Of a DNA stretch of 64,000 bases, positions 25,164 to 44,872 are shown piece by piece. How positions within the stretch are numbered: position 1 is the stretch's first letter; every line of letters starts with the position of its first letter. Location of the stretch: the NCBI GenBank assembly GCA_036504515.1, contig DASXVA010000007.1, forward strand, positions 100,031 to 164,030. Direction: 5' to 3'. A program made the position numbers and the translations under genes. The notes below the pieces were generated by a model. That model did not search any database, was not told the origin of the DNA, and was given only the letters and a program-made list of their open reading frames with translations. This DNA is from Rhodocyclaceae bacterium. Lineage in GTDB: Bacteria; Pseudomonadota; Gammaproteobacteria; Burkholderiales; Rhodocyclaceae.

Positions 25164-25284
25164 CAGAAGATGACGTACCGCCGGTCTGTATTTGACGCGC
25201 GCAACACTCGTGCCGCCGTCGATGGTGAGACCGACCTGCCCTAAAATGTCGTACCTCTGCGCAGATCAAAGGAGGTAGCCAGCG

Positions 25285-26287: not shown

Positions 26288-26785
26288 ATGCACTGGTATC
26301 TCGTTCATACCAAGCCCAGGCAGGAAAAGTGCACCCTCGACAACCTTGATCGGCAGGGTTATCAGTGCTACCTGCCGACGATCCCCTCCGAAAAGCTCCG
26401 CCAAGGACTGCTAACCGTTGCGGATGAGCCGCTGTTTCCACGTTACTTGTTCATCCGCCTGGGGCGGGGCGACTCAGCCAAGAGCTGGGCGCCGATCCGC
26501 TCGACCAAGGGAGTCAGCCGTCCGGTCAGCTTTGGGGTCGAACCCGCGCGGGTCGATGATGCTCTGATCGAACTGTTGCGAACACAAGAGGCATCGGTAC
26601 AGATCGAACCGGAGCGACTGTTCAAGACTGGGGAGCGTGTGCGAATGACCGAAGCACCGTTTGCTGGCTTCGAAGGCATCTACCAAATGGGCGATGGCGA
26701 GCGTCGGGTCATGGTGCTGATCGAGATTCTGAGCAAGCCTGTTGCGGTGCGCGTGGCACCGGCCAGTTTGCGCAAGGCAAGTTGA
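26288..26785 (+). CDS. rfaH: RfaH-type NusG paralog (operon-specific transcription antiterminator)
   Basis: A 165 aa protein collinear with E. coli RfaH: HWYLVHTKPRQE, EPLFPRYLFI, TKGVS..V.FG, and the KOW region GERVRMTEAPFAGFEGIY. Confidence 0.88.
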   Translation: MHWYLVHTKPRQEKCTLDNLDRQGYQCYLPTIPSEKLRQGLLTVADEPLFPRYLFIRLGRGDSAKSWAPIRSTKGVSRPVSFGVEPARVDDALIELLRTQEASVQIEPERLFKTGERVRMTEAPFAGFEGIYQMGDGERRVMVLIEILSKPVAVRVAPASLRKAS

Positions 26786-26957: not shown

Positions 26958-26969
26958 GGCGGTAGCTTG
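26958..26969 (+). promoter_or_regulatory. ops (operon polarity suppressor)/JUMPStart-like element
   Basis: GGCGGTAGCTTG on the sense strand of the downstream operon. The canonical ops is GGCGGTAGnnTG. It lies 173 bp after the rfaH stop and about 430 bp before the first glycan gene. Confidence 0.7.
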
Positions 26970-27156: not shown

Positions 27157-27389
27157 GAACCCCCTAGCAGCGACAAACTCATTGTAGCCGTGGATTCGCG
27201 CCACTTCCCGTCCATCTGGGTTGAGCCCTGCTGGGCGACTCATCCAAGGCCAGGGGCAAGTTGGGCTGGACGCCAAAGACCACCTTCGACGAACTCGTTG
27301 CCGAAATGGTGCGAGAAGACCTCAAATCCGCCGAGCGTGATGAGCTTATCAAGCTGAACGGCTACAAGGCAATGAATTACCATGAATAG
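27157..27389 (+). pseudogene. gmd: 3' remnant of GDP-mannose 4,6-dehydratase (gmd), frameshifted
   Basis: The frame ending at TAG 27387-27389 reads LGDSSKARGKLGWTPKTTFDELVAEMVREDLKSAERDELIKLNGYKAMNYHE, a typical Gmd C-terminus. The preceding IVAVDSRHF-PS-VE segment is in another frame. No N-terminal part of the gene is present. Confidence 0.75.
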
Positions 27390-27398
27390 AGATTCAGC

Positions 27399-28196
27399 GT
27401 GATGCGTTTGTTTTTTGATGAGCGATTCATCCAGGGTTTTAACCCTGCGACCCGATCCGTGCCTCTTTTGTATTTTTTGTATCTATCTGCAGTACCTTTA
27501 GCCAAGGTATTGATTGTTTGCCGGATAAAACCGAATTCAATCACTACACTGTCTAATTTGACTGCCATAGCGGGGCTAGTCTTTTTGGTTCTGGGGTCTT
27601 CAGCGTGGCTTTTCCCGATGATGTGGATGTTGGCTTTGTTTCTAGATATAGCGGATGGAATTGTTGCCCGAGTAACTGGTCAAGCGTCCGCTCAAGGCAG
27701 TTTTTATGACCATATGTCAGATCAGGTCAAGGTCATTGCCCTCTTCCTTTGTGTGGCACTGCGCTATGACGAGCATGCGGTTTGGATAGTTGCGTTTGCC
27801 GCAAACGGGCTATTCATGTTTTATGGTGTGGTAAATCAGTTCTACTATGCCCGCACGCTCTTGCTTAGTAGGGCTGCCCCTGCGGCTGTTCAGCAATCGG
27901 TGGGGAGTCGGCAGGCCAGTGAAATTTCAAACCAAACAACTGAACGTGGCTTAATCAAGTCTTTTTTTGACAGACATCCATTTGCCAAGAAGTGCGTGCT
28001 TGGAGTCTATGCCAGCCTGTTTGTGATGTATGGAAATTGTATGATTTTGTTGCTGCCAGTCAGCATAGGTTGGGAGTGGGCTATGGCTAGCATGTTACTG
28101 TTTGGCTTGGTGACCTTTCGTTCACTCGTTGAGGTCGTGCGAAATACGATTAAGGTCAACAAGCAGATTGCCCAAGCCAAGATTTCATGGAGATGA
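27399..28196 (+). CDS. CDP-alcohol phosphatidyltransferase family membrane protein
   Basis: Complete family signature D(x2)DG(x2)AR(x8)G(x3)D(x3)D in LDIADGIVARVTGQASAQGSFYDHMSD. Multi-TM protein with visibly lower GC than the downstream genes. Confidence 0.8.
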   Translation: MMRLFFDERFIQGFNPATRSVPLLYFLYLSAVPLAKVLIVCRIKPNSITTLSNLTAIAGLVFLVLGSSAWLFPMMWMLALFLDIADGIVARVTGQASAQGSFYDHMSDQVKVIALFLCVALRYDEHAVWIVAFAANGLFMFYGVVNQFYYARTLLLSRAAPAAVQQSVGSRQASEISNQTTERGLIKSFFDRHPFAKKCVLGVYASLFVMYGNCMILLLPVSIGWEWAMASMLLFGLVTFRSLVEVVRNTIKVNKQIAQAKISWR

Positions 28197-30595
28197 GTGG
28201 CATGGAATCTACCAGTGGATTTTCGTTTGGAACTAAAGCGGCGACCCTTGGCGCGCTTAAAGGGATGCTTAAGCAATCACTAATATGTGATTGCTGTGTA
28301 TTTACGGTGAAAGAGTGGGGAGAGAATAAGCAGGACGTGCTTTCGCGAGTGCGAGCCCAGTTTTCCCCTAACGCGGTGATCGTCCGAAGCAGCGCACTGA
28401 ACGAGGACGATGATGCTTGCACGATGGCTGGCGCCTACCTATCGGTGAAGGATGTTGCCACTGATGACCTGAAGTCTTTAGGCGACGCGATTGAGCAAGT
28501 CATCGCCTCATATGGCGATGGAGCGGGTGATCACGAATGGCATGAGATTCTGGTCCAGCCGATGATCAGTAATGTGTCTATGAGTGGGGTTGTGTTCAGC
28601 CACGACCTTGCGAGCGGGGCGCCTTATTACGTGATCAACTATGACGATGTGTCGGGAAAAACCGATACCGTCACCTCCGGTTCCACAGATACCAGTCGAA
28701 CTCTGCTCGTGCATCGGGCACACGCGGGTCGCATACAGTCGCCGCGTTTTCGCGCCCTATTGAAAAGCGTGCAAGAGATAGAACAGATCGTGAATTCACC
28801 CGGGGTAGACCTTGAGTTCGCGGTGACGAATGCCGGCGAGATATACATATTCCAGGTGCGTCGACTGTCGCTGAGGCAGAACTGGAACCGGGACATTTCC
28901 TACAACATCGATGCGGCGTTGGGATCCATCCAGCGCTTCCTGCAGCAGGAGTTTCGACCCAAGAACGGAGTTTTTGGAGAAAACACAATCTATGGCGAGA
29001 TGCCGGACTGGAACCCGGCGGAAATGATAGGGACAGTTCCGCGCCCGCTGGCGCGCTCGTTGTACCAGAACCTGATTACGGATTCGGTCTGGGCGGAAGC
29101 ACGGGCGGAGATGGGGTATCGAGATTTGTCGGGCCGACCGCTGATGGTTGGGCTGTGCGGGCGGGTTTTCATCGACGTTCGAGAGAGTCTGAACTCGTTC
29201 CTGCCGGCCGACCTGCCTGCGCCTATTGGTGAGAAACTCGCAAATGCTTGGCTGGATCGGCTGCGATCACACCCGGAGCTTCACGACAAAGTGGAATTCG
29301 AGGTCATGGTCACCGCGTTCAGCTTAGACTTTGAGCAACGGCTGGACCTGTCGACGCATGGGTTGGATGCTGCTGAGCGTGCTTGTTTCCGGGACGCCGT
29401 ACGGCGGCTTACCGTGAGCGTGATCACCGGCAAGTCTGGCGACCATGCTCTGCAGCAGCAACGACTGCAGGAACTGGAGCGTCGGCGGAAGGCGTTGCTG
29501 CAGGCGCAGCCAGGAGCGGACCTGTTGATGCAAGTCAATCTGCTGCTCCGCGACTGCCGGGCGCTGGGTACATTGCCATTCGCTATCTTGGCCAGGCATG
29601 GCTTCATCGCGGAAATCATGCTGCGATCTCTCGTGCGTACCGGCGTGCTAGACGAGGAGCGGGCAAGAGCCTTTCGTGCTTCCGTGCCTACGGTACTGAC
29701 GGAATTTCTGCATGCGATCCAGGCCAGCAGCCGGGGCGAGCGCGAGCGGGCCGAATTCATGGCCAAGTATGGCCACCTGCGTCCTGGCACCTACGACATT
29801 CTGGCCAACCGCTATGACCAGCATGGGCAACTGCTGCAAGACGCAGGATGCGATACCAGCGCTGGCCATACCGATGCTTTTGGATTTGAACTGACCACGG
29901 CTGAAGATCGGGCGCTGGCTGATGCGCTCACCAAGGCTGGGCTAGCCTTCGACAACCAGACCCTGCTGGGATTCATGCGCAGGGCGATCGCGGGACGCGA
30001 GCAAGCCAAGCTGATCTTCACGCGCAACGTTAGCGCCGCGCTGGAACTGATCGCGCAATGGGGGGGGCACAACGGGCTGAGTCGCGACGAGTTGTCGTTC
30101 CTAAGTGTCGACCAAATCCTTGACGCTCTGTCTAACGCGCACCGCCTGCCGGATGAGGATCGCCTGCGCGAGATTGCAAAGTCCGCTCGGGCCGACTATG
30201 AAATCAGCCAAGCCATTCGGCTGCCCTACCTGATCAGCTCCGAAGCAGATGTATTTGTTATCCCGTTGCTTAAGAGTCGGGCCAATTTCGTCACCGCCAA
30301 GCGCATCCAGGCGCAGCTGCAATACGTCTCCGACCACGCAGTGCAGGCGTCGCGCTCTGCGCGCAAGGTTGTCCTGATAGAGCGTGCGGATCCTGGCTAC
30401 GACTGGATATTCCTGTCGCCGATCGCGGGGCTGGTGACGAAATACGGGGGCGCGAATTCGCATATGGCGATTCGTTGCGCGGAGCTGAACATACCCGCGG
30501 CGATTGGCTGCGGTGAACAGATGTTCGAGCAATTGCGGCGCTCCAGCGCCGTTCTGCTGGACTGCGCGGCAGCCGTGCTGGTTCCTGTCCGGTGA
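28187..30595 (+). CDS. PEP-utilizing/PPDK-type kinase (ATP-grasp N domain plus C-terminal phosphohistidine swivel domain), Cj1418 L-glutamine kinase-like
   Basis: PPDK_N-like N-terminus FGTKAATLGALKGML and C-terminal mobile His motif GGANSHMAIRCAELNIPAAIGCG. No PEP/pyruvate TIM-barrel domain. 802 aa. Confidence 0.75.
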   Translation: MEMSGMESTSGFSFGTKAATLGALKGMLKQSLICDCCVFTVKEWGENKQDVLSRVRAQFSPNAVIVRSSALNEDDDACTMAGAYLSVKDVATDDLKSLGDAIEQVIASYGDGAGDHEWHEILVQPMISNVSMSGVVFSHDLASGAPYYVINYDDVSGKTDTVTSGSTDTSRTLLVHRAHAGRIQSPRFRALLKSVQEIEQIVNSPGVDLEFAVTNAGEIYIFQVRRLSLRQNWNRDISYNIDAALGSIQRFLQQEFRPKNGVFGENTIYGEMPDWNPAEMIGTVPRPLARSLYQNLITDSVWAEARAEMGYRDLSGRPLMVGLCGRVFIDVRESLNSFLPADLPAPIGEKLANAWLDRLRSHPELHDKVEFEVMVTAFSLDFEQRLDLSTHGLDAAERACFRDAVRRLTVSVITGKSGDHALQQQRLQELERRRKALLQAQPGADLLMQVNLLLRDCRALGTLPFAILARHGFIAEIMLRSLVRTGVLDEERARAFRASVPTVLTEFLHAIQASSRGERERAEFMAKYGHLRPGTYDILANRYDQHGQLLQDAGCDTSAGHTDAFGFELTTAEDRALADALTKAGLAFDNQTLLGFMRRAIAGREQAKLIFTRNVSAALELIAQWGGHNGLSRDELSFLSVDQILDALSNAHRLPDEDRLREIAKSARADYEISQAIRLPYLISSEADVFVIPLLKSRANFVTAKRIQAQLQYVSDHAVQASRSARKVVLIERADPGYDWIFLSPIAGLVTKYGGANSHMAIRCAELNIPAAIGCGEQMFEQLRRSSAVLLDCAAAVLVPVR

Positions 30596-30604
30596 ATAAT
30601 TGAC

Positions 30605-31120
30605 ATGGTTATTTGGATAATTGGTCTCTCTGGGGCTGGCAAGTCGACACTTGCGAAGGAGGTGGTGGAGCGTGTGCGCGCCATGGGCCGGCCAGTGGTA
30701 CTGCTCGATGGTGATGCGGTCCGAGAAATGTTTGATAACGACCTTGGACATTCCATGGACGACCGGCGCACGAATGCGCAGCGAATTTGCCAATTGAGCA
30801 AGTTCATCGAGGCACAGGGCATTGCAGTGGTTTGCGCAATACTGTCTATTTTTCCCGAAAGCCGGGCATGGAACCGCGAGCACCTGTCGCGTTATTTCGA
30901 AGTCTTCATCGACACTCCGGTCGAACATCTGGTGCATCGTGATTCCAAGGACCTGTACTCTCGCTATCAGCGTGGTGAAATCCATGGCGTAGCCGGCATG
31001 GACCTGCCATTCCCACCGCCAGACCAAGCTGACATGGTCATTCACAACACCGGCAGCCGTGACGAACTGCTGGCCCATGCTCAGGCACTAGCGGCGCTAG
31101 CGGCTGGCGACGTGGGGTGA
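30605..31120 (+). CDS. APS-kinase-fold kinase (CysC-like), Cj1415 cytidine diphosphoramidate kinase-like
   Basis: P-loop GLSGAGKST, LDGD.VR, DR..N..R and RD.K.LY...RGEI.G..G.D.P...P, 171 aa. It is not next to any sulfate-activation gene. Confidence 0.78.
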   Translation: MVIWIIGLSGAGKSTLAKEVVERVRAMGRPVVLLDGDAVREMFDNDLGHSMDDRRTNAQRICQLSKFIEAQGIAVVCAILSIFPESRAWNREHLSRYFEVFIDTPVEHLVHRDSKDLYSRYQRGEIHGVAGMDLPFPPPDQADMVIHNTGSRDELLAHAQALAALAAGDVG

Positions 31121-31797
31121 CTTCCCGCATGAATTATTCCTATACTTACGACAATCAACTCGAGCGGCCGTGCAGCTACATGTATTCTGTATTCGGGGGG
31201 GCAGCGTTTCTGGCTGCGTACCGGCAGTCTCGGTTGGCCATGATTGCCGCCTTGCCGTCTGTGCAAGCACAGGATGAAAGTGCGCAGGACCAGCAATTGC
31301 TTGCGCGGTGGCGCGGGCAATTGGAGCGGTTGGCCGTCGGCGCTCCGGTGGCGGATCTGCCGCAGGCAAGGGGTGGCGATCTGGCACGTTTTGACCTGAC
31401 GCAAACGGTAAGCACAGAGGAACTGCTTGATGCCATGCTGGAATGCCTGCCGGGCCAAGAGCGATGGTCGTTCTGGCTGGCGCGTCTGGTGCAACGCTTC
31501 GAGGTGACGAAAAAGTTGTACCAACTCTACCCACCGGGTTTCCGCAAAGGCGAGGGGGGGTACGAGAATCTGGCCCATTACCGCAAGCTGGCCCTGCTGC
31601 TTACCCATGGCTTTGCAGAGTCCGGCAGCCTGGTGTACCTGAATGCTTTGCTGAAGGTGAACGATCTGATGTTCTCTGCGCTGGAACCAATGCGCTGGTC
31701 TCGGTCAGCGATGGAATTGCTGGCCCTATTGGCGAATGCAGAACTGCGATTTGTCGCGCGGCTGGGTACTGAGCGGGGAGTTTCAAGTGCTGGATGA
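31117..31797 (+). CDS. Hypothetical protein (no recognisable family)
   Basis: A 226 aa ORF overlapping both neighbours (ATGA-type coupling upstream, 11 nt overlap downstream). Codon usage is consistent with its neighbours. Confidence 0.55.
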   Translation: MTSRMNYSYTYDNQLERPCSYMYSVFGGAAFLAAYRQSRLAMIAALPSVQAQDESAQDQQLLARWRGQLERLAVGAPVADLPQARGGDLARFDLTQTVSTEELLDAMLECLPGQERWSFWLARLVQRFEVTKKLYQLYPPGFRKGEGGYENLAHYRKLALLLTHGFAESGSLVYLNALLKVNDLMFSALEPMRWSRSAMELLALLANAELRFVARLGTERGVSSAG

Positions 31798-32512
31798 CGT
31801 CCTTCTGTTGGCGGCGGATACGTCACGCTCACGGGTCTATGCGCAGGCGCTGCGACAGGCCGGTCTGCTGCCCCGGTACGCCCTGTTGGTGCCAAACCGA
31901 ACCGGCACGAGCCTGCCGGGTCAGTCAGCTGCGGCGGAGGAACTCCAGCACCCACGGCTGGAGTGGATGCGCCACGGGTATGATCTGTCGGTGCCGCTGC
32001 ACGCTACCTTGGCAGATGGCGGGGTCGACGTGGCCGCGCTGACAACGCACGACATTAACAGCACGCAGGCGGCCGCGGAGATTGGGGCGCGGCCGCAGTC
32101 CGTCGTCATCTACTCGGGCTATGGCGGTGTTCTGGTCGGTGCCGGGCTGCTTGGCCTTGGCAAGAGTTTCCTACACGTGCACGGTGGTTACCTGCCGGAT
32201 TACAAAGGCAGCACTACGAATTACTACAGCCTACTGGCCGAGGGCACCATGGGGGCTTCGGCGATTTTTCTGACGACCGAAATCGACTGCGGTCCGGTGC
32301 TCTTGCGGAGGAAGTTCTCCGCCCCCATAGAGCGCACCGGCATAGACCACCTGTACGATTCGGCTGCTCGGGCGGAAGTGCTGGTGCAGACCCTGGCAGC
32401 GTATGCCAGAGATGGGGAGTGGCCGTCGGCCCTACCCGAGAACGCCGGCGGCAAGACGTACTATGTCATCCATCCGGTGCTCAAGCATCTGGCCATACTC
32501 GCAGGAAAGTAA
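31787..32512 (+). CDS. Formyltransferase N-domain-like protein (catalytic-domain fold only)
   Basis: VVIYSGYGGVLVGAGLL...FLHVHGGYLPDYKGSTTNYYSLL...GASAIFLTTEIDCGPVL resembles the Fmt/PurN-type core (H.S.LP..RG). GTG start at 31787 assumed. Confidence 0.6.
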   Translation: MLDDVLLLAADTSRSRVYAQALRQAGLLPRYALLVPNRTGTSLPGQSAAAEELQHPRLEWMRHGYDLSVPLHATLADGGVDVAALTTHDINSTQAAAEIGARPQSVVIYSGYGGVLVGAGLLGLGKSFLHVHGGYLPDYKGSTTNYYSLLAEGTMGASAIFLTTEIDCGPVLLRRKFSAPIERTGIDHLYDSAARAEVLVQTLAAYARDGEWPSALPENAGGKTYYVIHPVLKHLAILAGK

Positions 32513-32521
32513 GCGCTTAAC

Positions 32522-33313
32522 ATGAGAATAACCTATCGGAGTTCGGGCGTGCGCGAGTACTGGGCCAAGCGCTGGGCCAGCATCCCGGCAGATGAGCCGA
32601 TGGAAAACCTAGCAGTGTATCCGCTGAAGTACGCTGAACTGACCATTTCGGACCAAGCTGGCACCATTCTCGAAGCTGGCTGCGGTGCAGGCCGCGTCCT
32701 GCGATACTATAAAGATAGAGGTTATTCCATCATAGGGATGGACTATATCGAAGCCGCCGTTGAGAAGTTAAGGGCGACGGACCCGGAGTTGCAGGTGGAG
32801 GTTGGCGACATCACCAGACTGTCCTATGGTGATGCAAGTTTCCGCACCGTGTTGGCGTTCGGCCTCTACCACAACCTGCAGGGAGAGTCGCTTGACCGGG
32901 CGATGGCCGAGACCTTTCGTGTGATGGAATCGGGTGGGCGCGTCTGCGCGTCCTTCCGTGCTGACAACTTGCAAACCCGGCTCACGGACTGGCTGGCGGA
33001 TTACCGAGCCGGCAAGGCGGCGCGCAACGGCGTGCGCGAATTCCACAAACTGAACCTGACGCGAGGTGAATACGAAGACTTGTTCCGACGTGCCGGATTC
33101 ATTGTGGAGCAAACCTTTCCTGTAGAAAACATGCCCATTCTCTACAAGTTTGCCGTGTTCCGCAGCCGGCAGCACAAGACCTTCGACGAAAACCTGGCGC
33201 GCAAGGAAGGCTACCGGCTTTCTCCACTGGGAAACGTAATCCAGCGCTTCCTGATGCGCCGGTTCCCGTACCAGTTCTGTAACATTCTTGTCGTGATTGC
33301 CCGTAAACCGTGA
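32522..33313 (+). CDS. Class I SAM-dependent methyltransferase (Cj1419/Cj1420-like)
   Basis: Motif I ILEAGCGAGRVL, acidic post-I GMDYI, 263 aa. Confidence 0.8.
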   Translation: MRITYRSSGVREYWAKRWASIPADEPMENLAVYPLKYAELTISDQAGTILEAGCGAGRVLRYYKDRGYSIIGMDYIEAAVEKLRATDPELQVEVGDITRLSYGDASFRTVLAFGLYHNLQGESLDRAMAETFRVMESGGRVCASFRADNLQTRLTDWLADYRAGKAARNGVREFHKLNLTRGEYEDLFRRAGFIVEQTFPVENMPILYKFAVFRSRQHKTFDENLARKEGYRLSPLGNVIQRFLMRRFPYQFCNILVVIARKP

Positions 33314-33996
33314 AACAGCAGCCTTTGATTGCTATCACCATGCGGGCCGACCCGGTGGCCGGGCGCAACGAAGTACGTGATGCACTCGACCAGGCGTGGC
33401 TGCGGTTTTTCAGCGTGGCCGGCGTCCGGCCGCTACTGGTACCCAACGGACTGGGCGACCCGGTGGAGTACCTGCATGCAATGGGTGCTTCGGGGCTGGT
33501 GATCTCCGGTGGTAATGACATGTCAAGCAGTTTCCCAACCTGCTCCGGCGCGAGCGCCTTGGTGCGCGAAGGCCAGTTCCTGGACGTGCAACCGCTGCGC
33601 GACCAGCTCGAATCGCATCTGCTCGGCGCCAGCGCGACCGAAGGGTGGCCTGTACTTGGCGTTTGCCGGGGCATGCAGGCGATCAACCTATTTCATGGTG
33701 GGCGCCTGGAGCCCGTTTCCGGCCACGTTCGCACCCGGCACCGGCTGGTGCGGCTCGCTCCGACAGGCGAGTTCGAATTCGACGCGGAAGTGAACTCTTT
33801 CCATAACTACGGCGTCCCGCTGGATGGGCTTGGTTCAGGCTTTGTCGCATTAGCAACCGCTGGGGAAAGCGTAGAGGCGATCTGGAACGAAGACCTCCGC
33901 CAGCTCGGCGTGATGTGGCATCCGGAACGCAATGAGCCTTTCAGCAAGAATGATCTGGACTTGTTTCGTCAGCTTTTTGGGATATCCAGCGAATGA
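33310..33996 (+). CDS. Class I glutamine amidotransferase/peptidase C26 family hydrolase (Cj1417 gamma-glutamyl-CDP-amidate hydrolase-like)
   Basis: Nucleophile elbow LGVCRGMQAIN and C-terminal GVMWHPER (His/Glu of the triad). Overlaps the upstream stop. Confidence 0.8.
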   Translation: MKQQPLIAITMRADPVAGRNEVRDALDQAWLRFFSVAGVRPLLVPNGLGDPVEYLHAMGASGLVISGGNDMSSSFPTCSGASALVREGQFLDVQPLRDQLESHLLGASATEGWPVLGVCRGMQAINLFHGGRLEPVSGHVRTRHRLVRLAPTGEFEFDAEVNSFHNYGVPLDGLGSGFVALATAGESVEAIWNEDLRQLGVMWHPERNEPFSKNDLDLFRQLFGISSE

Positions 33997-34769
33997 ACAT
34001 GAAAACCGCACCTCAGGTCATCATCCTGGCCGCCGGCGAAGGCAGTCGACTGCGGCCGTACACCAATGATCGACCAAAATGCCTGGTCGAGGTGGCTGGC
34101 TCCAGCTTGCTCGACCGCCAATTGAAGGTGCTGCGCTCGCAAGGCCTGGAGGACATCGGCGTCATAGCCGGGTACCGTGGCGAGCAACTGAAGGGGCGTG
34201 GTCTGCGCGTCTACAATAACCCACACTACGCCCAGACCAACATGGTTTGGACCCTATTCTGCGCTGAGCAGTCGCTGGATCGGGAAACCATCATCGCCTA
34301 CGGCGATATCGTATATTCGTCGCACAACCTCCGGGCCCTGCTGAACAGCAAGGCCGACATTGCGGTGGTGATAGACAGGCAGTGGGAGTCCTACTGGCGG
34401 GCACGCTTTGGAAACCCACTGGATGACGCCGAAACCCTCAAACTCGACGGAAATGGCTGTATTACCGAGATTGGACAAAAGCCGACTTCGCTGTACGACA
34501 TTCAAGGGCAGTACATCGGGTTGATGAAGTTTTCCGCTCATGGTGTTGAACAGTTGCGTCAGCGCTTTCATGCAGCCCGCCAATCCGGCGAAATTCGCGG
34601 CAAGACGCTCGAGAAAGCCTACATGACGGACATGCTGCAGTTGCTGATCGACACGGGGTGTCGGGTGGAGGCCGTTCCGGTCGATGGCGAGTGGGTGGAG
34701 GTGGACAACGCAACCGATCTTGCGCTGACGGTTACCCGCGAGCGGTTGGAAACTATCGCTGCCGAATGA
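33993..34769 (+). CDS. Sugar/phospho-substrate nucleotidyltransferase (Cj1416 CTP:phosphoglutamine cytidylyltransferase-like)
   Basis: N-terminal ILAAGEGSRLRPYTNDRPKCL NTP-binding loop, 258 aa. Overlaps the upstream stop. Confidence 0.8.
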   Translation: MNMKTAPQVIILAAGEGSRLRPYTNDRPKCLVEVAGSSLLDRQLKVLRSQGLEDIGVIAGYRGEQLKGRGLRVYNNPHYAQTNMVWTLFCAEQSLDRETIIAYGDIVYSSHNLRALLNSKADIAVVIDRQWESYWRARFGNPLDDAETLKLDGNGCITEIGQKPTSLYDIQGQYIGLMKFSAHGVEQLRQRFHAARQSGEIRGKTLEKAYMTDMLQLLIDTGCRVEAVPVDGEWVEVDNATDLALTVTRERLETIAAE

Positions 34770-36571
34770 AATCTCAATTCCTCGTCTCGGCATGCCGGGA
34801 GGCATTGCCCGCAGGGGTGAAAAACATCTATGTGGCTGATCCGTTCATCTACCATGTTCTGAGCCGCGAAGGCCGGCTTTCGGAATTTTCCTCGGTAGAA
34901 GTCGGGCCGGTATATGACCCCTCGAGGGATAATTTACAGAGTGACCACGACGATGTGGACGGGCGCCATACCCGTTACCTCGCCCTTCTGATACCCCGGA
35001 TCAACCAGGTGCTGGGGTGTCAGCATGGCGAGCTGTTTTGGAAGCAGTTGCTGTCCGTTCCCCTGGTGAAGCATATTGGCATGTGCTACGCGATGTTCTG
35101 GCAGTGCGAGCGGCAGTTCGACGCGCGCCGTCACAGCGTGTTGGCGATGCGCCAAGATGCGTTCAGGGTCCCGCTGACATTCGACGAGCACCGGCATTAC
35201 CTGCAGCATACCGAGATGGGCCAGGAACAGTTGTTCGCCGTCTATTGCGAATTGTTTTTGGACGGGCCGGTGGAACGCTTTGGGACCTGTGCCCCAGCTC
35301 CCGCAGATGGCGCGACTGCGACATCCGATGGGACGGGTACCCCTCGGCGCAGCCTGGGCGAGCGCCTGCATCCGAAGCGGTTGCTGCGCAAACTGCTGCG
35401 GCAACGCCATCCACGGCTTGGCGTGCTGAATTCTTATTTTTCCGCCGCCTACATGGACCATCTGCTATGGCGGAGTCTGGGGCGTATCCAGCCGCTGAGT
35501 CTGCCTGCGTTGTCGTCCGACCGCCCTGCGCCGGATCTGAAGGCGCGGGCGTACCTAACCGAATGGGAAGACGATTTCGACCGGTTTGACCAGTTCTGCA
35601 TGCGCTGCCTTTACCACCTGTGGCCTGTGTCTATGCTGGAGGGCTTCGGGCCGCGCCTGATGACGATGCAACAATTTTTCCAGAAACAGCAGGGCTTGCG
35701 TTGGGTGGTCAGCGAAGCCTGGCCGGCTGATGACGCCACCAGCTTGGCACTGGCGGTGCTGCGCGAGTCTGGTGTGCGGCAGATGTATAACGAGCACAAT
35801 TATCTTGCCGTGCCATTTGTTGGCAACCACCTGAAGTACATCGCCGCGATCACGGATGAGTTTTTGACGCTGGGTTGGAATGACAGCGATCTTCCGAACC
35901 TAGTCCCTGCTGCGTCACTGTTTCCCTGGTATAGCCAGGAAGCCCGCCCGGTACCCGACATCAACTTGTTGCTGGTGGGCGGCTTACCACAGGCGCGCTG
36001 TCCCGAGATAGGGTCATCATGGGGGGACGCTGGTGCTCGGGGCGCGCGGCAATACCTAAATGCCACTAAAGGCCTGTTGGAAGCCTTAGGAGCAGATCTG
36101 CGGGCGAAAACGTATTTCCGCGCTTATCCGCGCTATGCCTCGCGCAACTGGGCGGTCTGGGATCAGCGCTACGAGTTTGGTGACGTGCTGCAATCGTTGG
36201 CGCAATACGACGATGACAGCGTGGTCAGCGCTTCCCAGTTGATGCGTCGAGCCCGGCTAGTCATCGTCAACTATCTCAGCACGGCGCATCTTGAGTCGCT
36301 GTTGGCGAATATTCCAACGGTGCTGCTATGGAACGCGTCGACGAACTGTTTCAGCCGGAAATATGAAGATATCTTCGACGGGCTCAGGGACGCTGGTATC
36401 TGCCATACCGATCCGGCTGCCGCCGGCGCGTTCATCCGCAGTATCGCCGAAGACCCGGAGGCTTGGTGGGGGAGCGCAAATACCCAGGCAGCCAAGACAG
36501 ACTTCCTGCAGCGCTTCTTTGGCCATCAGTCCACAATGTTGGCGCATCTGATTACACGAGCGAAACAATGA
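34766..36571 (+). CDS. Large soluble protein of unknown family, candidate phosphoramidate/phospho-group transferase
   Basis: The ATG at 34766 overlaps the upstream TGA (ATGA). 601 aa with no TM segments or classic GT motifs seen by eye. Size and position are comparable to Cj1421/Cj1422. Confidence 0.6.
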   Translation: MKSQFLVSACREALPAGVKNIYVADPFIYHVLSREGRLSEFSSVEVGPVYDPSRDNLQSDHDDVDGRHTRYLALLIPRINQVLGCQHGELFWKQLLSVPLVKHIGMCYAMFWQCERQFDARRHSVLAMRQDAFRVPLTFDEHRHYLQHTEMGQEQLFAVYCELFLDGPVERFGTCAPAPADGATATSDGTGTPRRSLGERLHPKRLLRKLLRQRHPRLGVLNSYFSAAYMDHLLWRSLGRIQPLSLPALSSDRPAPDLKARAYLTEWEDDFDRFDQFCMRCLYHLWPVSMLEGFGPRLMTMQQFFQKQQGLRWVVSEAWPADDATSLALAVLRESGVRQMYNEHNYLAVPFVGNHLKYIAAITDEFLTLGWNDSDLPNLVPAASLFPWYSQEARPVPDINLLLVGGLPQARCPEIGSSWGDAGARGARQYLNATKGLLEALGADLRAKTYFRAYPRYASRNWAVWDQRYEFGDVLQSLAQYDDDSVVSASQLMRRARLVIVNYLSTAHLESLLANIPTVLLWNASTNCFSRKYEDIFDGLRDAGICHTDPAAAGAFIRSIAEDPEAWWGSANTQAAKTDFLQRFFGHQSTMLAHLITRAKQ

Positions 36572-36669: not shown

Positions 36670-37665
36670 ATGACAGTACTAATTACCGGGGCAGACGGAT
36701 TCATTGGCTCCCATCTGGTCGAGCACATGTTACGTCGTGGCCAGCGTGTCCGAGCCTTCGTTCTATACAACTCATTCAACTCCTGGGGTTGGTTGGATGA
36801 CTGTCCGACCGAATACCGCAAGAACTTGGAAATTTTCAGCGGTGACATCCGTGACCCGTACGGCGTCAAGGAATCGATGAAGGGCTGCGACGCGGTTCTC
36901 CATCTAGCGTCGCTGATTGCTATTCCGTATTCATATCATTCGCCGGACACCTACGTCGATACCAACGTCAAGGGGACCCTGAACGTCCTCCAGGCGGCGC
37001 GAGAGCTTGGCCTGGCGCGGGTGATCCATACCTCGACCAGCGAGGTGTACGGAACCGCCCGGTTCGTGCCAATAACCGAAGAGCATCCACTGCTTGGCCA
37101 GTCGCCGTATTCGGCGACTAAGATCGCGGCTGACCAACTGGCATATTCGTTCTATGCCTCATTCAACCTGCCGGTGATGATCGTACGCCCGTTCAATACC
37201 TACGGGCCCCGCCAGTCGGCGCGTGCGGTGATTCCCACCATCATCAGCCAGATTGCCAGCGGCAAGCGCGAGATTTATCTCGGCGCGGTGTCGCCGACGC
37301 GCGACTTTAACTTCGTCTCCGATACCGTCGCCGGATTCGCCGCGGCGCTGGATGCGCCGCAGGTCGTCGGCGAAGTTGTCAACGTGGGGAGCAATTTCGA
37401 GATCTCGATCGCTGACACGGTACGCATGATCGCGGATATCATGAATGCGGATATCACTATCGTCACCGACGAGCAGCGCCTGCGCCCAGGGAAGAGCGAG
37501 GTCGAGAGGCTGTGGGCGGACAACCGCAAGGCGCGCGAACTGCTCCGTTGGCAGCCTGAACATGGAGGGCTCGATGGCCTGCGCCGCGGCCTCGAGAAAA
37601 CCGTGGCCTGGTTCCTCGATCCGACCAACCTGGCGCGCTACAAGTCCGACATATACAACATCTGA
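36670..37665 (+). CDS. NAD-dependent NDP-sugar 4,6-dehydratase (LegB-like)
   Basis: [14 protein letters not shown] Rossmann motif, [11 protein letters not shown], catalytic YSATK, 331 aa. Confidence 0.82.
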
Positions 37666-38759
37666 TGGCCGCGTCATGGTACGCAATGGCCGCATCGATT
37701 ACGTCGAGCATGGAAACAATGATGCCTGGATTTGAACTCGGGGGCCGCCTGATCGGCCCCGACCATCCGCCGCTGGTTATTGCTGAAATGGGGATCAACC
37801 ACGAGGGCAGCCTCGAGACCGCGTTCGCCATGGTCGATGCGGCGGCCAATGCCGGCGTCGAGGTGCTCAAGCACCAGACGCACGTCGTCGAGGATGAGAT
37901 GAGCGGCGCTGCCAAGCGGGTCATCCCGGGCAATGCCAGCGATTCGATATATGACATCATGGCCCGCTGCGCTCTATCTGAAGAAGACGAGCGCGTCCTC
38001 AAGGCCTACGTCGAAGCGAAGGGGATGATCTTCCTTAGTACGCCATTCTCGCGCGCGGCGGCTGACCGTCTCGAACGGATGGGAGTGGCTGGCTACAAGA
38101 TCGGTTCAGGCGAGTGCAACAATTACCCGCTGCTCAAGCATGTCGCGGGCTTCGGCAAGCCAATTATCCTGAGCACCGGGATGAATACTCTGGAGAGTGT
38201 CGGCAAGGCCGTCGAGATATTCAAAAATCATCGAGTGCCATATGCCCTGCTGCATACAACGAACCTGTACCCGACTCCGCCGCATCTGGTCCGTCTCGGC
38301 GCGATGGTCCAGTTGGCGCGGACCTTCCCCGACGCTGTGATCGGCCTCTCCGATCACACCATCAACAATATCGCCTGCCTGGGCGCGGTTGCCCTCGGGG
38401 CCAGCATCCTTGAGCGCCACTTCACCGACAGCATGGATCGCGCAGGACCAGACATCGTCTGTTCGATGGATCCCGTGGCTTGCCGCGAGCTGATCGAGGG
38501 TAGCCGCATCCTGCACAGCGAACTCGGCGGGGAAAAGGGCCCGACGAAGGAAGAGCAGGTGACCATGGACTTTGCCTTCGCAACCGTGGTGACAATCGCG
38601 CCAATCCGGGCCGGCGAGATATTCACGATGCAGAACCTCTGGGTCAAGCGGCCGGGTACCGGGTCGATCCCCGCCGAACAGTTCGAGGCCTTACTCGGCA
38701 AGTCTGCTTCACGGGATCTCGCGCCGGATACCCATCTCGACATGGACGACATCGCTTGA
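37665..38759 (+). CDS. neuB: NeuB-family nonulosonic acid synthase (legionaminic acid synthase LegI-like)
   Basis: [29 protein letters not shown], and a C-terminal SAF/antifreeze-like domain ([10 protein letters not shown]). TGATG overlap with the upstream gene. The true start may be 37710-37722. Confidence 0.85.
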
Positions 38760-38770
38760 CTCGAACCTCC

Positions 38771-39610
38771 ATGCCCACCATCGTTATTACAGGAGCATCG
38801 GGATTCGTTGGCCGCCAGCTGCATGCGCACCTGGTCGCAATGGGCGCTCATGTCATCGCGGTCTCCCGGCAGCCTCGCACGGGTATGGTGCAAGTCGACG
38901 ACTATGGCCGCAGCCCGGATGGCGATGTGCTGATACACTTGGGCGAGGAATCCGACCGGGCGGTGGTCAACCGCGCCGGCGAAGCTTACCTAGATGTGTC
39001 CACGCGTGTTGTCGGTGCCCTTGCCGCGCGCGGCTACCGCAGGCTCGTGTACATCTCTTCGGGAACAGTGTATGGCGACGCCAGCCCGGAGCCGAACGAG
39101 CCCGGCAACGCCGTCATCGCCAATGACATTTATAACCGTGCTAAGCTCGCCAACGAAGACATCGTCCTCGCCGCCGGCGGAGGCGTAGCGCGGCTCAGCA
39201 ACCTTTATGGCGAAGGTATGGCGGTGAGCAACGTGCTGTCCGACATCATCGCCCAGGTGCCGGGACCTGGGCCTCTCGTCGTACGTGACGTCACTCCAGT
39301 GCGCGATTACCTGCATGTCAGCGACGCAGCAGAGGCGCTGGCGCGGTTTGCCGAGAGTAATTACATGGGCATTATTAACGTCGCCACCGGTCGCGGGACA
39401 TCTGTGCATCGCCTTGCCGAGATCGCCTTAGCCGCAGCAGGTCAGGCCGGACGTGAGGTGATGTCGACAAACTCGATGACGCGCTCCTCGATCAACGTCC
39501 TCGACATCAAGCTGACTAGCGTAATCCTTGATTGGTGGCCGCGGATGGACTTGGCCGAACGACTGACTGAACTTGTACACAGCAAAATGGGGTCGAATTA
39601 TGGGCGGTAA
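38771..39610 (+). CDS. SDR-family NAD-dependent epimerase/reductase
   Basis: ITGASGFVGRQL Rossmann motif and YNRAK catalytic pair. Alternative TTG start at 38756. Confidence 0.72.
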   Translation: MPTIVITGASGFVGRQLHAHLVAMGAHVIAVSRQPRTGMVQVDDYGRSPDGDVLIHLGEESDRAVVNRAGEAYLDVSTRVVGALAARGYRRLVYISSGTVYGDASPEPNEPGNAVIANDIYNRAKLANEDIVLAAGGGVARLSNLYGEGMAVSNVLSDIIAQVPGPGPLVVRDVTPVRDYLHVSDAAEALARFAESNYMGIINVATGRGTSVHRLAEIALAAAGQAGREVMSTNSMTRSSINVLDIKLTSVILDWWPRMDLAERLTELVHSKMGSNYGR

Positions 39611-40823
39611 ACGCAGAATCGCGATCTTCACCGGTAATCGTGCCGAATACGGCTTGCAATATCCAATCCTCAAGGCGGTAGATGAGCATCCCGCGCTCGA
39701 TTACCTCCTGCTCGTCTCTGGCGCCCACCTCGACAACAACTTCGGACGCACGCTCGAGGAGATCCGCAACGACGGCTTTCGCATCGAGGCCGAGGTCAAG
39801 ATCGAGATGAATGCCGATTCGCGCATCGCCACCGCGAAAGCTATCGGCGAGGGAGTGCTGTCGATTAGCCGGGTACTCGAGCAGACGCAGCCGGATATAT
39901 TCGTCGTCTATGCTGATCGTTTCGAGGGTTTCGCCGCAGTGATCGCTGCCAGCCAGATGAATATCCCGACTGCGCATATCGAGGGAGGGGACCTGACTGA
40001 GGGGGGTGCGCTTGATGACTCGGTCAGGCACGCGATGACCAAATTGTCGCACCTGCACTTCACCACCAACCAGCAAGCGACCAACCGCTTGCTGGCGATG
40101 GGTGAGGAATCCTGGCGCGTGCACACCGTAGGCTTCCCGGCTATCGACCTGATCTCCGCTGGGATGTACGCCAAGCCGGCAGAAGTCGTCGCTCGTCTCG
40201 GCCTCGACCTGGCGCGGCCGATAGTGCTATTCACCCAACATTCGGTGACCACTGAATTCCAGTGGGCTGCCGAACAGGTCCGCCCATCGTTGGAGGCGAT
40301 GGAGGAACTGGCACGAAACGGCGTACAGGTCATCCTGACCTACCCGAATAACGATGCCGGTGGGCGGGCGATCATTGCCGAGCTGAATGCCATTGGCCAG
40401 AGTGGCATCGGGGGGATTCAGGTGCATCGCTCCCTTGGACGCCATCTCTACCATGGAGTCCTTGCCTTGGCGAAGGACTCCGCTATCCGTATTGCATGTA
40501 TGGGGAATTCATCGTCGGGCATAAAGGAAACGCCGGCGTTCGGTTGCCCGACGGTGAATATCGGCTCACGTCAAGAGGGCCGCATGCGCGGCGACAACGT
40601 GATAGATGTCGGATACGATAAGGCCAGCATACTGAAGGCTGCGTTGCGCTGTCTCAATGACGACGAATTCCGCGCTCTCTGCCGCAATGCGGAGAATCCA
40701 TATTACCTTGGCGATGCGGGTGAGAAGATTGCGGCAGTTCTCGCCGAGGTTCCGCTCGACCAGAAGCTGATTCGCAAAGCGATGACGCTGCAAGGCAAGG
40801 CCAAGGATGGATGGTATTGTTGA
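39600..40823 (+). CDS. neuC: Hydrolysing NDP-N-acetylhexosamine 2-epimerase (NeuC/LegG-like)
   Basis: RRIAIFTGNRAEYGLQYPIL, HIEGGDLTEGGALDDSVRHAMTKLSHLHF and GNSSSGIKETP motifs. Confidence 0.85.
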   Translation: MGGKRRIAIFTGNRAEYGLQYPILKAVDEHPALDYLLLVSGAHLDNNFGRTLEEIRNDGFRIEAEVKIEMNADSRIATAKAIGEGVLSISRVLEQTQPDIFVVYADRFEGFAAVIAASQMNIPTAHIEGGDLTEGGALDDSVRHAMTKLSHLHFTTNQQATNRLLAMGEESWRVHTVGFPAIDLISAGMYAKPAEVVARLGLDLARPIVLFTQHSVTTEFQWAAEQVRPSLEAMEELARNGVQVILTYPNNDAGGRAIIAELNAIGQSGIGGIQVHRSLGRHLYHGVLALAKDSAIRIACMGNSSSGIKETPAFGCPTVNIGSRQEGRMRGDNVIDVGYDKASILKAALRCLNDDEFRALCRNAENPYYLGDAGEKIAAVLAEVPLDQKLIRKAMTLQGKAKDGWYC

Positions 40824-40848
40824 ACCGGCTTGGTTCAGGCGAGGATCT

Positions 40849-41925
40849 ATGACCGACGCAAGAGATACCCCGGCAGACTTGTGGAAAGCCACCTTACTGG
40901 CGGATACTGCCACCGTCGGCGAGGCCATACGAAATCTCGAGGATTCGCAGCAACAGATTGTGCTCGTGCTCGCGACTGATGGGTCGCTCGCAGGGACGAT
41001 CACAGATGGCGACATTCGCAGGGGCCTGCTGCGTGGGTTTGATCTAAGCAGCTCGATAGGCGGTCTGATACATCGCAATCCGCTCGTCGTGCCACCGGAT
41101 CTCGACCTCGAATTCGCCATTCGCATCATGCAGGCAAACGATATTCGCCAGATTCCCGTGGTCAATGACCAACGAATGGTCGTCGGCCTGCACACGATGA
41201 AGATGAAACACGCGCCTGCCCTGAAGCCCAACGTCATGGTGATCATGGCTGGTGGGCAGGGCAAGCGCCTGCGCCCGTACACGGAGAATTGCCCCAAACC
41301 GATGCTGCTGGTGGCCGGCAAGCCCATGCTTGAGCACATCATCGAGAGGGCGATCAGCGAGAATTTCCGTCGCTTCATCATCTCAACCCATTACCTCGGT
41401 CATATGATCGAAGAATATTTCGGCGACGGATCGCGCTTTGACGTGGATATTTGCTACCTCCGTGAAGAGGCCCCACTGGGGACTGCTGGCGCCCTCGGAT
41501 TGATGGACCCGCGCCCAGAATTACCAATTCTAGTGACAAACGGCGATGTGCTTTGCGACATATCTTATGGCGATTTACTCGATTTCCATAATCGTCACAA
41601 GGCGATGGCAACCATGGCGGTGCGTATCCATGAATGGCAACATCCCTTTGGCGTAGTCAACATCGACGGGGTGGATATAGTCGGTTTCGAGGAAAAGCCG
41701 ATCTCGCGTAGCCACATCAATGCCGGCGTGTACGTTCTGATGCCCGAGGCGCTTGATGAAATGGTCGCCGGGGATTACTGTGACATGCCCACGTTGTTCG
41801 CATTATTACAGGACAAAGGGGCGCGTACCATCGCTTATCCAATGCATGAGCCTTGGTTGGACGTCGGGCGTGCTGACGACCTCGTCCATGCACGAGCAAA
41901 CCTCGAGGCGGCTAAGAGCCAATGA
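40849..41925 (+). CDS. CBS-pair plus nucleotidyltransferase fusion (PtmE/LgaF-like sugar-1-phosphate nucleotidyltransferase)
   Basis: N-terminal tandem CBS region (GTITDGDIRRGLL, IRQIPVVND), then MAGGQGKRLRPYTENCPKPML NTP-transferase loop. Confidence 0.8.
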   Translation: MTDARDTPADLWKATLLADTATVGEAIRNLEDSQQQIVLVLATDGSLAGTITDGDIRRGLLRGFDLSSSIGGLIHRNPLVVPPDLDLEFAIRIMQANDIRQIPVVNDQRMVVGLHTMKMKHAPALKPNVMVIMAGGQGKRLRPYTENCPKPMLLVAGKPMLEHIIERAISENFRRFIISTHYLGHMIEEYFGDGSRFDVDICYLREEAPLGTAGALGLMDPRPELPILVTNGDVLCDISYGDLLDFHNRHKAMATMAVRIHEWQHPFGVVNIDGVDIVGFEEKPISRSHINAGVYVLMPEALDEMVAGDYCDMPTLFALLQDKGARTIAYPMHEPWLDVGRADDLVHARANLEAAKSQ

Positions 41926-42686
41926 GCGTTAGCAGTCGGCCTGCCGAGTCACACAATGGTAAGATAACGAGTTCAGCATTGATCCTGACGAGCAACGCGC
42001 CGCGTCATGTCTATTTCGCTAATCGACTGGCTGGCCAATTCGACGTCAAAGGCATTATTTCGGAACCGAAGTTCGACTATTTCGCTAAGCAACGCGAGGA
42101 AAGCGAACTAGTCAGGCAGCATTTCGATCGCCTCACCCGCTACGAGAAGCAGTATCTCGGCGAGTTCGCCACTTTCCCCGACTGCCCGATTCTACGCATC
42201 GATAAGCAACGGATCAACGAAGCCGAAACTCTGGAATGGGCGCTCGACAAGCAGGTCGACGTCGTGCTCCTGTTCGGCACCGGGATCCTCGGCGAGGGCT
42301 GGCTGTCGGCGTTCGAGGAGCGAATCGTGAACCTGCATCTGGGCTATTCGCCGAGGTATCGCGGTGCGGCGACGCTGTTCTGGCCCTTCGTCCATAACGA
42401 AATCAAGTTCGTCGGTGCCACCATCCATCTGGCCGAGGCTAGTGTTGATGGCGGGGCAATATTGAAAATAGTTACGCCGGACGTCGGACCGGGTGACAAC
42501 TACTACGATATTAACTACAAGACGATCAAGAAAGCGGCGGATGAGATGAGCAGCATCGTGAATGGCTACCTTAATGGCAGCCTGCGCGCCGAGAAGCAGG
42601 ACAAAGGGGAGCAGAAATACCTTTATCGCAAGGCCGATTTCAACGCGGAGGTCCTCGCCAAGGTACTGGATCGCTATGGTTACTGA
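41922..42686 (+). CDS. Formyltransferase-fold protein (N-domain only)
   Basis: VDVVLLFGTGILGEGWL...IVNLHLGYSPRYRGAATLFW...GATIHLAEASVDGGAIL resembles the HxSLLPxxRG / D-containing formyl_trans_N core. Confidence 0.65.
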   Translation: MSVSSRPAESHNGKITSSALILTSNAPRHVYFANRLAGQFDVKGIISEPKFDYFAKQREESELVRQHFDRLTRYEKQYLGEFATFPDCPILRIDKQRINEAETLEWALDKQVDVVLLFGTGILGEGWLSAFEERIVNLHLGYSPRYRGAATLFWPFVHNEIKFVGATIHLAEASVDGGAILKIVTPDVGPGDNYYDINYKTIKKAADEMSSIVNGYLNGSLRAEKQDKGEQKYLYRKADFNAEVLAKVLDRYGY

Positions 42687-44851: not shown

Positions 44852-44872
44852 AGTAACGTTCACTACGGGAGC

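Follow-up and report, generated by a model that had tools for sequence, protein, structure and literature searches.

A likely Campylobacter-type phosphoramidate-donor operon in a glycan island of a Rhodocyclaceae bacterium

The window analysed here is 64 kb of a contig from a Rhodocyclaceae metagenome-assembled genome (MAG), and the system in question is a block of nine open reading frames (ORFs) at 27399-36571, all on the forward strand, which an earlier note had likened to the O-methyl phosphoramidate (MeOPN) pathway of Campylobacter jejuni. Successive junctions within the block measure -10, +9, -4, -62, +9, -4, -4 and -4 nt; because these distances all lie between -62 and +9 nt, the genes are tightly or translationally coupled and the block reads as one operon. 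The ORFs stand where the earlier note had placed them, and its coordinates, every motif that it cited and the domain architectures were all found in the sequence. Its description of three extra genes interleaved with those of the pathway was correct for two of them, which lie inside the block and encode an orphan protein (unk226) and a formyltransferase-fold protein (FT-like), but the third, encoding a CDP-alcohol phosphotransferase-family protein, lies directly upstream of the glutamine-kinase gene (Table 1).

Two of the cited motifs, FGTKAATLG (residue 14) and GGANSHMAIRCAELNIPAAIGCG (residue 754), belong to the 802-aa protein of the block. Pfam recognizes in it only PF01326 (residues 59-152) and PF00391 (residues 727-794), with the C-terminal phosphoenolpyruvate (PEP)-binding barrel absent, and its match in the PDB to the PEP synthase PpsA (2ols, E-value 9e-6) is confined to the mobile domain. 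Among NCBIfam models it scores 884 bits with NF004508 (cut-off 501), as against 36 bits with PpsA, 15 bits with rifamycin phosphotransferase (Rph) and at most 38 bits with any PpsA, pyruvate phosphate dikinase (PPDK) or Rph model. On these scores the protein is assigned to one distinct family, apart from PEP synthases and antibiotic phosphotransferases as had been anticipated, and its identification as PpsA, PPDK or Rph was ruled out. Homologs with 60-66% identity carry the IMG name "glutamine kinase", and His759 of the swivel domain (GGANSHMAIRC) is invariant in a 24-sequence alignment of the family. The proposed reaction is the conversion of L-glutamine and ATP to N-phospho-L-glutamine.

The 228-aa hydrolase, which contains LGVCRGMQ and WHPER, finds its best NCBIfam family, over its full length, in NF045546 (82.3 bits), the equivalog model built for Cj1417 of C. 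jejuni, with guaA_Nterm following at 31 bits. The same model is matched by all 67 of the hydrolases linked to glutamine-kinase homologs (best E-value 4e-38), in which Cys119, His204 and Glu206 are invariant. The 258-aa nucleotidyltransferase contains LAAGEGSRLRPY and carries LAAGEGSRLRP, a motif of the GxG[ST]R type; its best PDB matches are CTP:phosphocholine cytidylyltransferase (1jyk) and a phosphonate cytidylyltransferase (6pd1), relatives that are suggestive only with respect to specificity for CTP and phosphoglutamine.

The fourth core enzyme is a 171-aa kinase with GLSGAGKST and LDGD motifs and the fold of adenosine 5'-phosphosulfate (APS) kinases, which are its best PDB matches (7yq0, E-value 4e-26). 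It passes PRK05541 (167 bits against a cut-off of 127) and falls under the cut-off of the apsK model TIGR00455 (129 against 138.7 bits). When the kinases linked to glutamine-kinase homologs were aligned with Escherichia coli CysC and two crystallized APS kinases, the P-loop, the DGD motif and Arg40, Arg54 and Asn57 were found to be retained, the latter three being the residues that bind the phosphosulfate in PAPSS1 and the Penicillium chrysogenum APS kinase. Both adenine-stacking phenylalanines are swapped, one for His or Tyr and the other for Val (LGFS to LG[HY][ST], GFTG to [NG]V[VA]G), and SP[YH] becomes S[LI]F. This pattern of residues is compatible with a ligand that carries an isosteric phosphoramidate and another base. 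The expectation that the protein is not a true CysC is thus borne out by its position below the apsK cut-off and by its altered base-stacking residues. The swivel histidine, the Cys-His-Glu triad and the P-loop, whose fate had been left for checking, are all kept. Sulfation was considered as a function of the block and rejected: sulfate-activation genes are missing nearby, as had been claimed, with E. coli CysD and CysN queries matching nothing in the window, and the kinase lies under the apsK cut-off.

Relatives of the 802-aa protein were sought with one genome per GTDB species, which gave at least 600 pattern matches, 592 of them confirmed as relatives; the module is thereby placed in at least 592 species-representative genomes of bacteria and archaea, and the best 80 of these loci were examined. 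When 1.84 billion representative proteins were searched with a HMMER profile, 2181 clusters (50% identity) were obtained at E-values of 1e-30 or below. The best 80 loci come from Desulfovibrio, Planctomycetota, Omnitrophota, Cohnella, Bacteroidota and phyla of the candidate phyla radiation (CPR), from Pseudomonas, Alteromonas, Aeromonas, Methyloversatilis, Denitromonas, Propionivibrio and Magnetospirillum, and, among archaea, from Woesearchaeota, Altiarchaeales, Methanosarcinales and Micrarchaeia; cultured carriers include Pseudomonas, Methyloversatilis, Denitromonas, Dechloromonas, Azospirillum and Vibrio. Campylobacter is not among these best 80 of at least 592 loci, ten AT-rich representatives of the family proved to be metagenomic or marine (Tara) and none of them Campylobacter, and a PDB sequence search with the core proteins returned no Campylobacter MeOPN enzymes.

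Gene neighbourhoods were compared in the 49 loci where 6 kb or more is available on each side of the glutamine-kinase homolog. The hydrolase and the nucleotidyltransferase are each present in 47 and the kinase in 42; FT-like is found in 28, unk226 in 26 (each time with FT-like) and the methyltransferase in 14-19. Recurrence of the gene combination beside the 802-aa family in 47 of 49 loci from unrelated phyla is more than chance. Two same-strand sub-modules recur, one of glutamine kinase, hydrolase and nucleotidyltransferase, the other of kinase, unk226 and FT-like, sometimes with the methyltransferase. Gene fusions also tie the parts together. A nucleotidyltransferase domain forms the N terminus of the glutamine kinase in locus L044 (9272-12412) and in the 1002-aa protein of Vibrio alfacsensis plasmid pVa1 (L113, 8368-11376), and about one in three of the 150 top-ranking representatives of the family are fusions of this kind, ~1000-1050 aa long. 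Kinase-unk226 fusions occur in L007 (6702-7784) and L047 (15199-16299, reverse strand), and unk226-FT-like fusions in L068 (8634-9983) and L071 (6550-7887). Synteny and fusion across phyla are strong evidence that the genes form one pathway, and co-occurrence together with the fusions places unk226 and FT-like in it. The four core architectures are, as the earlier note had proposed, a functionally linked module of the MeOPN type, by family scores and by synteny conserved across phyla. Public annotation of the homologs reads "PEP-utilizing enzyme", "adenylyl-sulfate kinase" and "gamma-glutamyl-GABA hydrolase family".

Table 1. Features of the block and its surroundings in the window, with the evidence for each
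Feature	Position	Strand	Evidence
rfaH, operon-specific transcription antiterminator heading the island	26288..26785	+	TIGR01955, 158.9 bits (cut-off 144.5)
ops element GGCGGTAGCTTG, RfaH recruitment site	26958..26969	+	sole match to GGCGGTAGNNTG in the window
CDP-alcohol phosphotransferase-family membrane protein	27399..28196	+	PF01066, 48 bits
Glutamine-kinase-family enzyme, 802 aa	28187..30595	+	PPDK_N and PEP-utilizers domains; NF004508, 884 bits
APS-kinase-fold kinase, 171 aa; proposed cytidine diphosphoramidate 3'-kinase	30605..31120	+	PF01583, 134 bits
unk226, orphan all-helical protein, 226 aa	31117..31797	+	no family match; AlphaFold2 (AF2) model
FT-like, formyltransferase-fold protein, 258 aa	31736..32512	+	PF00551, 26.7 bits (weak)
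Class I S-adenosylmethionine (SAM)-dependent methyltransferase, 263 aa; proposed phosphoramidate O-methylation	32522..33313	+	Methyltransf_11/25, 58 bits
Class I amidotransferase-fold hydrolase, 228 aa; proposed gamma-glutamyl-CDP-amidate hydrolase	33310..33996	+	Peptidase_C26/GATase, 71 bits
LicC-like nucleotidyltransferase, 258 aa; proposed CTP:phosphoglutamine cytidylyltransferase	33993..34769	+	NTP_transf_3, 53 bits
LIC12162-family GT-B-fold transferase, 601 aa	34766..36571	+	TIGR04331, 294 bits (cut-off 225); PF27859
Legionaminic-acid-type nonulosonic acid genes	36670..46981	+	TIGR04180 LegB, 523 bits; TIGR03569, TIGR03568, TIGR03573, TIGR03572, TIGR01855, TIGR03584

Taken together, these data make it likely that block 27399-36571 is a phosphoramidate-donor operon following the Campylobacter route, set in an RfaH/ops-controlled, horizontally acquired glycan island. 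As one co-transcribed unit, it would make a nucleotide-activated phosphoramidate donor in the following way. The glutamine kinase would phosphorylate the amide nitrogen of glutamine; the LicC-like nucleotidyltransferase would join the phosphoglutamine to CTP to give CDP-L-glutamine; the Cys-His-Glu hydrolase would free glutamate, leaving cytidine diphosphoramidate; and the APS-kinase-fold enzyme would phosphorylate the 3'-hydroxyl to give a donor resembling 3'-phosphoadenosine 5'-phosphosulfate (PAPS). These four steps are inferred by homology from the characterized Campylobacter enzymes. The remaining two are drawn from genomic context: the SAM methyltransferase would O-methylate the donor, which unk226 and FT-like may modify further, and the phosphoramidate group would then pass to a glycan probably containing a legionaminic-acid-type sugar, by way of the upstream CDP-alcohol phosphotransferase, the downstream LIC12162-family GT-B protein, or both.

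Several points weigh against this interpretation. The likeness to Cj1415-Cj1422 is one of family models and architecture rather than of direct alignment, and NF004508 and PRK05541 are only presumed to cover the Campylobacter proteins. With 82 bits against an equivalog cut-off of 250 for NF045546, the hydrolase is a relative of Cj1417 and not a curated equivalog, and the family of the nucleotidyltransferase is generic, so that its substrate is not readable from sequence. The LIC12162-family protein occurs in only 3 of the 80 glutamine-kinase loci (and in 3 of the 49 well-flanked ones) and accompanies nonulosonic-acid genes at least as often as the module. Finally, P-N group chemistry has not been reported, in the literature searched, for the Rhodocyclaceae host or for any carrier other than Campylobacter.

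The accessory genes may bear on the identity of the final group. unk226 has no match in Pfam, in NCBIfam or in a PDB sequence search, and the best E-value of a PDB profile search was 0.29; its AF2 model is all-helical with a predicted local distance difference test (pLDDT) score of 90.7 and finds no significant fold match in the PDB (best Foldseek E-value 0.18). Every one of its 281 homologs is annotated "hypothetical". The family profile of FT-like matches the methionyl-tRNA formyltransferase Fmt (4iqf) at 4e-11, as well as sugar N-formyltransferases, ArnA and PurN. Throughout this family a His stands in place of the catalytic Asn (HxH...D for NxH...D), and His147, His149 and Asp184 are invariant; the start codon of the window gene is uncertain. 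That unk226 and FT-like are one split gene was considered and rejected, since most loci have them as two neighbouring ORFs and only two loci have a true fusion.

The closest relative of the module (L114/L115, with a kinase 75% identical to that of the window) has a 410-aa SGNH/GDSL-like protein in the position after the kinase that unk226 and FT-like occupy elsewhere (L114, 7456-8688). This protein, whose N terminus is hydrophobic as judged by eye, is also found in nine genome loci (L003, L006, L012, L014, L020, L034, L066, L076 and L079) and one metagenome locus (L095), and it and the unk226/FT-like pair appear to be mutually exclusive alternatives. The 263-aa methyltransferase, which contains EAGCGAGR, is the best conserved of the accessory proteins, at 50-66% identity across phyla. 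In Polynucleobacter, Omnitrophota, Peregrinibacteria and Nomurabacteria it is 57-66% identical, above any neighbouring gene of the module. Such conservation points to a conserved small-molecule substrate, probably the nucleotide-linked donor, and not to the variable glycan.

The conserved accessory genes fit the earlier suggestion of a variant phosphoramidate product: because unk226 and FT-like, acting with the kinase, probably modify the donor, the final group may differ from plain MeOPN. A bolder proposal, which we regard as doubtful, is that Campylobacter MeOPN is a trimmed offshoot of a much larger and essentially unstudied phosphoramidate family of bacteria, CPR and archaea, in which the kinase, unk226 and FT-like trio turns cytidine diphosphoramidate into a chemically new donor, N-formylated or otherwise N-acylated for instance, and CDP-alcohol-type phosphotransferases put that donor on nonulosonic-acid glycans. 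If this were true, the window would specify a kind of P-N decoration so far undescribed in nature.

Two candidates for the transfer step flank the core genes. The CDP-alcohol phosphotransferase carries the complete signature D-x2-DG-x2-AR-x8-G-x3-D-x3-D in LDIADGIVARVTGQASAQGSFYDHMSDQ (residues 82-109), and visual inspection of its hydrophobic sequence suggests a polytopic membrane protein. The last 10 nt of its gene are shared with the glutamine-kinase gene; it directly precedes the kinase gene in the closest relative, L114/L115, and also adjoins the module in L014, L017, L041, L047, L095 and L104. Of these, L017 is from Methyloversatilis universalis EHg5, where the set is complete and includes a LIC12162-family gene, and L041 is from Denitromonas ohlonensis SFB-1. 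Since CDP-glutamine and the CDP-amidate would be the only CDP-activated metabolites of the operon, this enzyme is a logical candidate transferase.

The second candidate is the 601-aa protein, which the earlier note had called unassignable. It can in fact be placed in the LIC12162 family by its TIGR04331 score, and had escaped assignment because the local copy of Pfam-A gave no match; the public database lists it under PF27859. Its AF2 model (pLDDT 87) finds distant GT-B matches, with E-values of 5e-7 and weaker, and since the fold search returned only generic matches of this kind (TM 0.3-0.5), the type of donor cannot be inferred from it. The protein may transfer either the phosphoramidate or a nonulosonic acid. 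No paper linking LIC12162, MeOPN transferases and phosphoramide in lipopolysaccharide (LPS) was found in the literature searched.

The 601-aa protein could instead be a legionaminic-acid glycosyltransferase that belongs with the downstream genes and has no counterpart in Cj1421/1422, with the CDP-alcohol phosphotransferase or the unk226/FT-like pair transferring the phosphoramidate, and this we consider a strong contender, rated a little below an even chance. The GT-B fold resembles that of nucleotide-sugar transferases, and all three module loci with a LIC12162-family protein also have NeuB/NeuC. NeuB/NeuC occur in eight of the ~17 metagenome loci of the LIC family that extend over 10 kb or more, and an LPS cluster of Herbaspirillum has neuABC next to a LIC12162-family gene, in a passage that names no MeOPN-like genes. 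Yet the glutamine-kinase module is present in five of the same ~17 loci, which we judge, by impression and not by any statistic, to be frequent for a module found in a small minority of genomes, and three of these five, L095, L104 and L109, have no NeuB/NeuC in view. The 601-aa gene moreover overlaps the last gene of the module by 4 nt and is separated from legB by 98 nt, and Cj1421 and Cj1422 were themselves initially annotated as glycosyltransferases (PMC9561416).

Less probable, and in our view unlikely, is that the operon makes a different CDP-activated donor, either because the CDP-alcohol phosphotransferase uses CDP-L-glutamine itself to attach phosphoglutamine or because the kinase phosphorylates another amide. 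Sequence does not reveal substrate specificity; a CDP-alcohol phosphotransferase adjoins the module in the window, as does a TagF-type enzyme on the Vibrio plasmid, and CDP-amino-acid donors are used directly by Clostridioides difficile (CDP-N-methylthreonine, in the flagellar glycan). Set against this, the hydrolase is kept in 47 of 49 loci, always matching the Cj1417 model, which argues that CDP-glutamine is hydrolysed, and the 3'-kinase is kept in 42. That the genes are unrelated neighbours, serving to make PAPS for sulfation, to supply a PpsA/PPDK-like or antibiotic-type phosphotransferase and to add phosphocholine or phosphoglycerol, is very improbable: true APS kinases and LicC as best PDB matches, and the public names of the homologs, speak for it, but the lack of CysD/CysN in the window, the sub-threshold apsK score with its altered base-binding residues, the family scores of the 802-aa protein and the near-invariable synteny and fusions across phyla all speak against it.

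The block belongs to a glycan island that starts after hisG and hisD. Next to hisD, at 23955-26198, come a 163-aa fragment of a phage integrase, a RepB-like partition protein and a 204-aa ORF without assignment, an arrangement that suggests horizontal acquisition of the whole island. The ops element GGCGGTAGCTTG is situated 173 nt past rfaH and ~430 nt upstream of the block, where 0.10 chance matches would be expected in all; the pattern searched, GGCGGTAGNNTG, is the ops consensus. With rfaH and a perfect ops element at its head, the long glycan operon appears to be RfaH-dependent. Between the ops element and the block, at 27222-27392, a GDP-mannose 4,6-dehydratase-like gene (gmd) is represented by an orphan C-terminal piece (ending in GKLGWTPKTTFDELVAEMVREDLKSAERDELIKLNGYKAMNYHE and a stop) that is preceded by an in-frame stop and was probably left behind by recombination at the border of the inserted module.

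Downstream of the block, 36670-46981 encodes LegB, a NeuB-like protein, a short-chain dehydrogenase/reductase (SDR), NeuC, a CBS-nucleotidyltransferase, a formyltransferase, WbuX/WbuZ/HisH and a CMP-nonulosonic acid (NulO) synthetase-like protein; further along the island are a PglK/MsbA-like ABC exporter, glycosyltransferases, DegT aminotransferases and a Wzx-like protein. The legionaminic-acid-type genes are the probable glycan context of the module. Among them, at 41922-46280, are a second, canonical formyltransferase and the WbuX/WbuZ/HisH amidotransferase trio, which suggest that the legionaminic-acid-type sugar bears N-formyl and/or acetamidino groups.

On V. alfacsensis pVa1 the module (L113, 8368-14049) is located within an XrtA/PEP-CTERM exopolysaccharide locus with cysD/cysN nearby, and is adjoined by a gene of the TagF-type CDP-glycerol glycerophosphotransferase family, in a place corresponding to that of the CDP-alcohol phosphotransferase gene in the window. 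Plasmid-borne copies are also found in Azospirillum, Cupriavidus, Agrobacterium, Allorhizobium, Microvirga, Roseovarius and Pseudohalocynthiibacter. In Pseudomonas sp. KNUC1026 (L024, 8120-13763) a cassette of kinase, unk226, FT-like, glutamine kinase, hydrolase and nucleotidyltransferase stands beside rpsA and aroA, where the O-antigen locus of Pseudomonas usually lies. Upstream of this cassette, three proteins of 373-522 aa have no family match.

Glycan decorations with a P-N bond are currently treated as a peculiarity of Campylobacter. The rarity that the earlier note had implied is contradicted by the spread of the module across at least 592 species-representative genomes, and the high interest that it drew from that rarity does not hold. 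Nor is the module new as such, since IMG already labels the family "glutamine kinase" and a 2024 preprint predicts a cluster on Borg elements, outside Campylobacter. The window is one well-preserved example, with all accessory parts, of a large and poorly recognized family, and not a unique case. It makes testable how common phosphoramidate-type decorations are in environmental surface glycans, how they are transferred and what the accessory proteins do.

Of the known systems, that of C. jejuni is the closest. The chemistry of its pathway is established for Cj1415-Cj1418 (PMC11800397; PMC6429109), MeOPN has been demonstrated in several Campylobacter species (PMC3907429) and a 2022 review terms the kinase "C. 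jejuni-specific" (PMC9561416); in the literature searched, phosphoramidate chemistry is characterized in Campylobacter only. The window shares with cj1415-cj1418 the same four enzyme architectures in one operon, as judged by architecture and family models, and with the MeOPN system a SAM methyltransferase and a location within a surface-glycan locus; the best curated model of its hydrolase is that of Cj1417. As the earlier note had described, the gene order differs from that of cj1415-cj1422 and there is one methyltransferase in place of two. The C. jejuni cluster is not known to contain the unk226/FT-like pair, which is a conserved pair linked by fusions to the kinase, or the CDP-alcohol phosphotransferase, which in the window is coupled upstream. 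The candidate transferase of the window is a LIC12162-family GT-B protein whose likeness to Cj1421/1422 is drawn from length alone. The host is a Rhodocyclaceae MAG, to proteins of which the 802-aa and 601-aa proteins are 100% identical, and the context is one of legionaminic-acid-type genes in place of a Kps capsule.

The 171-aa protein shares its fold, P-loop and DGD motif with the CysC APS kinases but, unlike in the PAPS pathway, sulfate adenylyltransferase genes are absent from the window and the adenine-stacking Phe and SP[YH] are replaced. Similarly, the 802-aa protein has the swivel phosphohistidine domain of PpsA, unlike which it has no PEP/pyruvate-binding barrel.

The Type A flagellar glycan of C. 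difficile offers a parallel for the later steps. There FtaC/FtaD carry out CDP-amino-acid phosphotransfer (bioRxiv 10.64898/2026.02.12.704994), and the preprint describes a donor that is derived from an amino acid and activated by CDP, a SAM methyltransferase that works on the nucleotide-linked form and a CDP-X phosphotransferase that decorates a glycan, for all of which the window has candidate counterparts. The donor there is CDP-threonine with a P-O bond, and glutamine kinase, hydrolase and 3'-kinase do not form part of the system as described. By analogy, it might be a useful model for the methyltransferase and the CDP-alcohol phosphotransferase of the window. The C. difficile phosphotransferase, which the preprint describes by its activity, is TagF-like and is not known to belong to PF01066.

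The other predicted case outside Campylobacter is the MeOPN-like four-gene cluster in a surface-glycan region of the Borg elements of Methanoperedens (bioRxiv 10.1101/2024.11.05.622173). Like the window, it has homologs, predicted there from structure and sequence, of the glutamine kinase, the CDP-glutamine hydrolase and the phosphoglutamine cytidylyltransferase, but it is described without the kinase/unk226/FT-like trio, and one Borg cytidylyltransferase is fused to a PEP mutase. In contrast to the Borg cluster, the version in the window is bacterial, chromosomal and apparently under RfaH control.

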